Assembly (NCBI RefSeq): GCF_003334335.1
Contig: NZ_QOWQ01000196.1
DNA: 410 nt
Source of the DNA: Escherichia coli
GTDB lineage: Bacteria > Pseudomonadota > Gammaproteobacteria > Enterobacterales > Enterobacteriaceae
Reading direction: 5' to 3' (one strand)
Below, piece after piece: positions 1 to 401 of this stretch. The notes beneath the pieces were generated by a model. That model searched no databases. It saw nothing but the letters and a program-made list of their open reading frames with translations, and was not told the origin of the DNA. The position numbers and the translations under genes were made by a program. The first letter of the stretch is position 1. Every line of letters starts with the position of its first letter.

Positions 1-401
1 GCAAGCACCTCATTTTTTGTTGGGGTGCTTTTTTTCAATTCAGCGATATAGCACTCCAGTTTTTCAATGCGTGATTCGATATCATCTTTTTCTGACAGTA
101 TCGTGTTATATGCATTGTTAATTTGTATGGTATACCGATCTTCGGAACAAAGGCACTTTTCCTGTGACTGTTCATCCCCTTCACATAACCCGGCAGCAAT
201 ATCCATGAAAAACTGCTTCGCCTTCTTTTTCGCCTCAGCTTCGTAAAACTCCAGCGGGGCACCTTCAACACGATCAAGATCAATCACCACATTTGGCAAC
301 AACAGTGACGTATACCCACCCGTTTCCAGCGCTACAGTAACAGTAATCTTATCCGGGTAATTATTTATCCCTTTAACAACCAGTTCGTATTGTTTATTCA
401 T
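1..401 (-). CDS. Hypothetical protein, 5' portion only (start codon in window, 3' end beyond left edge). Visible product (133 aa): MNKQYELVVKGINNYPDKITVTVALETGGYTSLLLPNVVIDLDRVEGAPLEFYEAEAKKKAKQFFMDIAAGLCEGDEQSQEKCLCSEDRYTIQINNAYNTILSEKDDIESRIEKLECYIAELKKSTPTKNEVL...
   Basis: Manual reverse-complement translation: ATG at plus coordinates 401..399, then 133 sense codons with no stop down to position 3 (2 nt left over at 1..2). An in-frame TAG at 405..407 fixes this ATG as the first possible start. An open frame this long in AT-leaning DNA is unlikely by chance. The protein has a non-random make-up: alternating hydrophobic beta-like segments, an amphipathic Lys/Ala helix and a heptad-spaced Ile/Leu helix. 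Codon choice (CTG, CCG, GCG, AAA) looks like a Gram-negative enteric-type gene, but that is impression only. Not in the ORF track, consistent with the track needing an in-window stop. Confidence 0.78.
   Translation of the reverse strand, partial: MNKQYELVVKGINNYPDKITVTVALETGGYTSLLLPNVVIDLDRVEGAPLEFYEAEAKKKAKQFFMDIAAGLCEGDEQSQEKCLCSEDRYTIQINNAYNTILSEKDDIESRIEKLECYIAELKKSTPTKNEVL
5..35 (+). terminator. Intrinsic-terminator-like hairpin plus T-tract on the plus strand, embedded in the minus-strand coding region
   Basis: Plus-strand stem 5-11 (gcacctc) pairs with 22-28 (ggggtgc): 6 Watson-Crick pairs and one G-U wobble. Loop 12-21 (attttttgtt), followed immediately by T7 at 29-35. The loop is larger than in typical strong terminators (8 nt if a12:t21 also pair), so stability is only moderate. 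The orientation would terminate rightward transcripts entering from the left edge. Confidence 0.25.

Follow-up and report, generated by a model that had tools for sequence, protein, structure and literature searches.

The coding frame of the window

The question raised by this 410-nt stretch of DNA (hereafter the window; 41.7% G+C) is which of two overlapping frames of the same strand encodes a protein. The first-pass annotation had claimed that the true coding frame is absent from the accompanying list of open reading frames, and that the 82-aa ORF found there is probably a shadow. Retranslation agrees with its starting point: the minus-strand frame that opens at the ATG at 401..399 runs through 133 sense codons with zero stops up to the window edge (translation 401..1). 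The in-frame codons 5' of this ATG read GAG-TAG-ACG, and because of the TAG it is the earliest possible start after a stop. The frame is missing from the list because the list omits ORFs that run off either source end. The sole entry of at least 60 aa in that mechanical list, 35..283 on the minus strand, starts with TTG, encodes 82 aa and sits one base out of register with the longer frame; it was correctly described as another frame of the same strand with an out-of-frame peptide stretch, since its KLRRKRRRSSFS segment is the +1 reading of GAAGCTGAGGCGAAAAAGAAGGCGAAGCAG, where the longer frame gives EAEAKKKAKQ (window 241..212).

According to our analysis, window 1..401 on the minus strand represents the first two-thirds of a genuine protein-coding gene of the DUF1327/YdfR family, a reading to which we give a probability of about 97%. 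The window holds 133 codons and 2 nt of codon 134 of this gene, which is cut by the window edge and whose nearest relative has a full length of 197 aa. The openness of the frame is by itself only moderately unusual, as an open run of at least 134 codons in any of the six frames appeared in 128 of 5000 dinucleotide-preserving shuffles (2.6%), and the frame question is settled by homology rather than by ORF length. The 133-aa translation matches Pfam DUF1327 (PF07041) with E=1.8e-34 and 118.3 bits, its residues 1-80 aligning with positions 1-80 of the 93 in the model, and PHROG 2091, a phage family to which no function is assigned there, with E=1.1e-62 (residues 1-128 on profile positions 1-142 of 183); altogether it is matched by PHROG profiles of five families at E<=6e-17. 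A protein search with the same translation returned 205 database proteins, and PF07041 was present in all 120 matches listed. Twelve residues, Y5, K10, R44, E46, L50, E51, F52, Y53, A57, F65, L72 and E74 (numbered on the window protein), are invariant across 23 diverse members and the window protein, and a second alignment (A2) yields a consistent set besides A3. The profile match, these conserved residues and the gene position between holin and endolysin together place the protein in Pfam DUF1327. An NCBIfam search with both frames gave no model at E<=1, and that set seems to be without an HMM for the DUF1327 family. The gene family itself is already known, being present in Pfam and annotated in thousands of genomes, and is not novel.

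The 82-aa peptide, compared in the same way, has no meaningful match: it belongs to no NCBIfam family, and its best PHROG profile reaches only E=0.12. It has a pI of 11.8 and zero acidic residues. Its length is unremarkable and within chance, an open run of at least 82 codons being found in 2210 of the 5000 shuffles (44%). Codon usage, with neighbouring phage genes (10,275 nt) as the training set, favours the 1..401 frame, with log-odds over whole frames of +51.6 bits for the real frame, -44.6 for the shadow frame and -71.2 for the third; over the span of the shadow ORF only, the real frame scores +37.8 bits versus -13.4. Ten homologous genes of 312-807 nt were compared, their sources being E. 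coli prophages, Stx phages, K-12 Qin, Salmonella and an Escherichia sp.; none has an internal stop in the real frame, and each has from 5 to 16 in the shadow frame. In five of nine homologues (L002, L005, L006, L008 and L011) such stops fall, at varying positions, inside the equivalent of the 82-aa ORF itself. Neither conserved homologues nor better coding scores were thus found for the 35..283 frame; the ORF is a +1 out-of-frame shadow and no gene, and both parts of the original claim, on the missing frame and on the listed one, are borne out.

It is scarcely conceivable, in our estimate, that the 82-aa ORF is nevertheless the true gene or a second overlapping one, with the long open frame only incidental to it. 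Besides its lone place on the mechanical list, such a reading could draw on the close alleles, where the apparent dN/dS of the shadow frame is 0.25-0.35 and below that of the real frame, and on one database protein, P0105 (84 aa), which reads into the shadow frame. The low ratio, however, comes from about 16 substitutions, most of which precede the ORF in a stretch closed to the shadow frame by stops, and an overlapping gene that this ratio might have pointed to was rejected, as stops occur across the relevant region in every sequence. P0105, in its turn, is a DUF1327 gene minus one T of a T5 run, and it stops 23 codons further. The ORF remains familyless and TTG-initiated, with a negative coding score, a length reached in 44% of shuffles and interruptions in more than half of the homologues.

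P0105 deserves a remark of its own. Labelled 'qin prophage, predicted protein', it enters the shadow frame right after the T5 run (…AKQFSWMLLPGYVKGM…) and ends soon after; the corresponding homopolymer lies at window 208..212, as A5 on the plus and T5 on the minus strand. The comparison indicates a probable homopolymer frameshift or sequencing error, and through shifts of this type shadow-like peptides occur in databases.

Substitution patterns agree with the real frame, namely with the DUF1327 gene, in all but one respect. Indels between alleles always have lengths divisible by three (33 and 9 nt, together 42 nt, in the alignment of the window with L001, L002 and L003). Among ten sequences the variable columns number 35-41 at codon positions 1 and 2 versus 58 at the third (p=0.04), which is a modest excess. 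In deep comparisons the real frame has a dN/dS of 0.23-0.34 and the shadow frame one of 0.56-0.96; the values for the former show purifying selection. Against the close alleles L005 or L006, the substitutions of the window are spread over the codon positions as 9/7/8, with a real-frame dN/dS of about 0.9-1.1 that rests on small counts (about 4 synonymous and 13 non-synonymous changes). Apart from this wrinkle, essentially nothing speaks against the identity of the gene as DUF1327. What the pattern suggests is not a different reading frame, since stops interrupt the shadow frame there in every sequence, but a fast-evolving surface patch at residues 27-49, in predicted strands 2-3, which may possibly be an interaction surface. 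In comparison with the allele of Stx2 phage 86, 8 of the 11 replacements in the first 75 codons fall within these residues (window 254..323, minus strand).

Lysis-cassette position and mosaic architecture

The gene abuts a holin. Positions 405..410 of the window (minus strand) are the 3' end of a class II holin (S) gene, with GAG as the last sense codon and the TAG stop at 407..405, followed by a 3-nt ACG spacer (404..402) before the ATG. Over 410..402 the window agrees in every base with two E. coli loci, EC2 (L001) and CP55 (L002), where these positions are the end of a CDS annotated as class II holin together with the spacer; the holin ORF of L001 ends ...RRKAARGE*. A holin stands directly upstream of the DUF1327 gene in 10 of 10 loci (L001-L009 and L011), the Salmonella one belonging to another Pfam family, and a phage lysozyme and an Rz-type lysis gene are found downstream wherever the flanking sequence is long enough. 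The gene is the second one in the lysis cassette of lambda-like (Stx-type) E. coli prophages, between holin S and lysozyme R. The holin stop 3 nt before the ATG suggests that the two genes may be translated in a coupled manner.

Nucleotide matches to the window are found in 2662 of 5426 complete E. coli genomes, so that we deal with a common gene, present in about half of them; in Shiga-toxin phages it belongs to the lysis cassette. The whole window is not contained as one uninterrupted match in any complete E. coli genome or deposited phage, and when viral contigs were scanned for exact matches to a 45-nt pattern that crosses the mosaic junction, none was obtained. Window 54..410 is 100% identical to EC2, where the gene is annotated as 'DUF1327 domain-containing protein' beside the class II holin, and window 1..85 matches a different allele, that of CP55. 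The entire window is covered at 99.3% by an ENA metagenome contig, k141_2432 (L003, 1578 nt). Extension to a stop, which the first-pass annotation had proposed as a check, is possible on this contig: it carries the frame on without interruption to a TAA at codon 198; the product (P0001) has 197 aa, ends …AADEMKETILDRAAHLSCASRLKEHLQRPEEKRRDEQFAAFYDYCIEVTRRNFVKAFEESKSLQ* and is 99% identical to the window protein with one difference (E6K).

Several modules are recognizable along the gene. The DUF1327 domain, residues 1-80 (window 162..401, minus strand), is delimited by the Pfam match, the AlphaFold2 model and the invariant residues. It is followed by a variable linker, residues 81-105 (EKCLCSEDRYTIQINNAYNTILSEK; 87..161, minus), for which the alignment with L001, L002 and L003 shows at least two alternative cassettes; the cassette that the window lacks is 14 codons longer (…EKRPIILEAQDVLITYRGKLPG…). 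The segment DDIESRIEKLE, residues 106-116 (54..86, minus), is common to both allele types and is the likely mosaic crossover point. At 1..53 (minus) there begins an alternative C-terminal helical module (CYIAELKKSTPTKNEVL…) of L002/L003 type, matched in these two loci and unmatched in L001. The order is thus an N-terminal domain, a linker cassette, DDIESRIEKLE and alternative helical C-terminal modules, with a common tail in many alleles, and complete gene products range from 103 to 268 aa. The window allele combines a PhiR12/EC2-type linker with a CP55-type C-terminal module; the same combination is present in L003 and in the database protein P0002, and the mosaic is therefore genuine and not an assembly chimera. 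In three further proteins (P0003, P0006 and P0012) part of the N-terminal domain is duplicated internally in tandem (for instance, …NYPDKITVTVALEIGGYPSLLLPDVAISLDRTEGATLEFYEAEAKKQAKQFFMDV repeated); these duplications could be real, or could be assembly artefacts in repeated prophage regions.

The warning that annotation pipelines would miscall this locus proved plausible in principle, but in practice both the gene caller applied to the ENA contig and PGAP got the frame right. ORF lists that need both ends miss genes cut by an edge and can offer a shadow as the lone 'gene', and for edge windows edge-tolerant gene calling or six-frame homology screening is called for. PGAP does mark 3103..3348 of L001 and 3102..3443 of L002 as pseudogenes ('incomplete; partial in the middle of a contig; missing C-terminus'). 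Both ORFs are in fact intact, with stops, and encode 169 and 176 aa; the likely cause of the flag is a mosaic C-terminus that does not align to the reference protein used.

The protein, its relatives and possible function

The gene encodes an acidic, soluble protein whose N-terminus forms a conserved beta3-alpha domain; the C-terminal part is helical, built of modules and subject to recombination. In the AlphaFold2 predictions the N-terminal domain, modelled with confidence (mean pLDDT 82.6, pTM 0.70), consists of beta strands at residues 5-14, 18-27 and 38-43 followed by a long helix at 50-74, and the C-terminal part appears as helices of low confidence. The pI is 4.6-5.1, GRAVY -0.42 and the maximum of 19-residue Kyte-Doolittle hydropathy 1.08; by the latter there is no hydrophobic segment of transmembrane or signal type, such as would be expected of a holin, antiholin or spanin in the membrane. 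A Foldseek search against AFDB50 returned only DUF1327 proteins of Enterobacterales and no structural relatives outside the family, and a sequence-profile search of the PDB found no solved structure for it. Weak coiled-coil matches of the C-terminal part to PDB profiles (Rad50 hook region, E=0.008, and GCN4) were rejected as compositional.

The relative studied by experiment is YdfR of K-12 (b1555, P76160), encoded in the Qin cryptic prophage; with the window protein it shares 39% identity over 99 residues (E=7e-23), the N-terminal DUF1327 domain and the motif DRVEGAxLEFYEA. Its gene lies between essQ (holin) and rrrQ (lysozyme), the same slot as that of the window gene. YdfR, however, is 103 aa long and ends in a short, unrelated tail, whereas the full-length window protein (197 aa) continues into a long C-terminal extension, helical and modular. 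The same slot is also occupied by the genes of PhiR12_1 (XSB41613.1), of Stx2-converting phage 86 (gp05, YP_794052.1) and of BP-4795 (ORF47), and DNA of these types is 90-99.7% identical to the N-terminal part of the window; their C-terminal modules are unlike that of the window, the proteins having 169, 268 and 114 aa, respectively.

Substantive functional literature on the family comes down to the one study that we found. Göpel et al. (RNA Biol 2026; PMC13232886) obtained K-12 YdfR from a two-hybrid screen and reported for it the binding of RNase E: residues 1-72 were enough for the two-hybrid interaction with RNase E 1-597, and Strep-YdfR co-purified RNase E 1-598, with DNase-resistant nucleic acid co-eluting. 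Overproduction of YdfR altered few transcripts and left growth normal, and the authors let stand the possibility that a contaminant was the RNA binder (PMC13232886). Within the screen YdfR, like RapZ, falls into group II, which interacts with the Rne N-terminal domain alone (PMC13232886). The parallel with RapZ, SlyX and YegJ of the same screen is a comparison of the 'works like' kind only, as these proteins have no detectable sequence or fold relation to the window protein and the phage context differs.

By likeness to K-12 YdfR, our best guess at a mechanism, to which we nonetheless give less than even odds, is that the window protein is an RNase E-directed late phage protein. Made alongside the lysis proteins late in infection, it would use its N-terminal domain to bind host RNase E at the catalytic half, perhaps with RNA as a further ligand, and might in this way modulate RNA decay at that stage. 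The biochemical lead comes from one paper and a homologue of 39% identity, to which the window adds nothing beyond homology; the few transcripts changed on overproduction and the possible contaminant (PMC13232886) weigh against the mechanism, and so does the acidic character of the protein, unusual for an RNA binder. A broader suggestion, that DUF1327 is a widespread phage class of RNase E-directed factors, expressed from the late operon with the lysis proteins, in which the beta3-alpha domain would dock on the catalytic half of RNase E and the coiled-coil tail, quick to recombine, and the fast-changing patch at residues 27-49 would tune specificity, seems to us unlikely. If true, it would mean that lambdoid and Stx phages possess an unrecognised handle on host RNA decay in late infection.

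The constant position of the gene between holin and lysozyme, directly at the holin stop, would fit as well a lysis accessory, such as a holin-timing regulator, an antiholin-like factor or an endolysin partner, having nothing to do with RNase E or RNA decay. As far as can be judged from its citation as ref. 79 in PMC13232886, the genome-wide screen of Paradis-Bleau 2014 places ydfR among envelope-integrity genes, which points in the same direction, but such a phenotype could come from polarity of the ydfR deletion on adjacent lysis genes. Without a transmembrane or signal segment the protein cannot act within the membrane in the manner of known antiholins, overproduction of ydfR brought no growth defect (PMC13232886), and no similarity to known lysis proteins emerged from PHROG, PDB profile or structure searches; we regard the accessory role as somewhat unlikely. 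That the gene is a 'moron'-type passenger of an arms race, serving for instance in anti-defence or exclusion and neither in lysis nor in RNA decay, appears quite unlikely. The highly mosaic C-terminal part, with its wide range of lengths among complete genes, the dN/dS of about 1 concentrated at residues 27-49 in close alleles and the frequent intact and truncated copies in cryptic prophages could be taken for it. Against it are the strict synteny within the late operon, the purifying selection seen in deep comparisons (0.23-0.34) and the outcome of a PADLOC search, where no defence or anti-defence family was matched beyond Csm5 at a weak 14.8 bits, which we rejected as noise.

Features on the opposite strand

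At 3..36 on the plus strand, antisense to the gene and within its codons for KKSTPTKNEVL, the terminator scan and RNA folding revealed a terminator-like hairpin with a T run (AAGCACCTCA-loop-TGGGGTGCTT, then TTTTTT), equivalent to 811..778 (minus) in L003. Its folding energy of -15.5 kcal/mol corresponds to z=-5.1, and 0 of 200 shuffles were as stable. It is present only in alleles with the window-type C-terminal module. A match of the hairpin to the terminator end of GcvB in Rfam was rejected as sub-threshold (17.1 bits versus a gathering value of 42), reflecting a generic hairpin and U-tract. In L003 a convergent 86-aa ORF has its stop about 143 nt before the hairpin, which could be its terminator.

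This 86-aa ORF of the opposite strand (MDYPNLPKQTFADL…) shares about 52 nt with the 3' end of the DUF1327 gene. It is labelled as 'hypothetical' or 'DUF1823 containing protein', with no Pfam hit on record, and is located at 954..1214 (minus) in L003, 2631..2891 (plus) in L001, 3455..3715 (minus) in L009 and 3500..3760 (minus) in L011. It is conserved in those E. coli, Salmonella and Escherichia sp. loci that carry the common C-terminal tail module.
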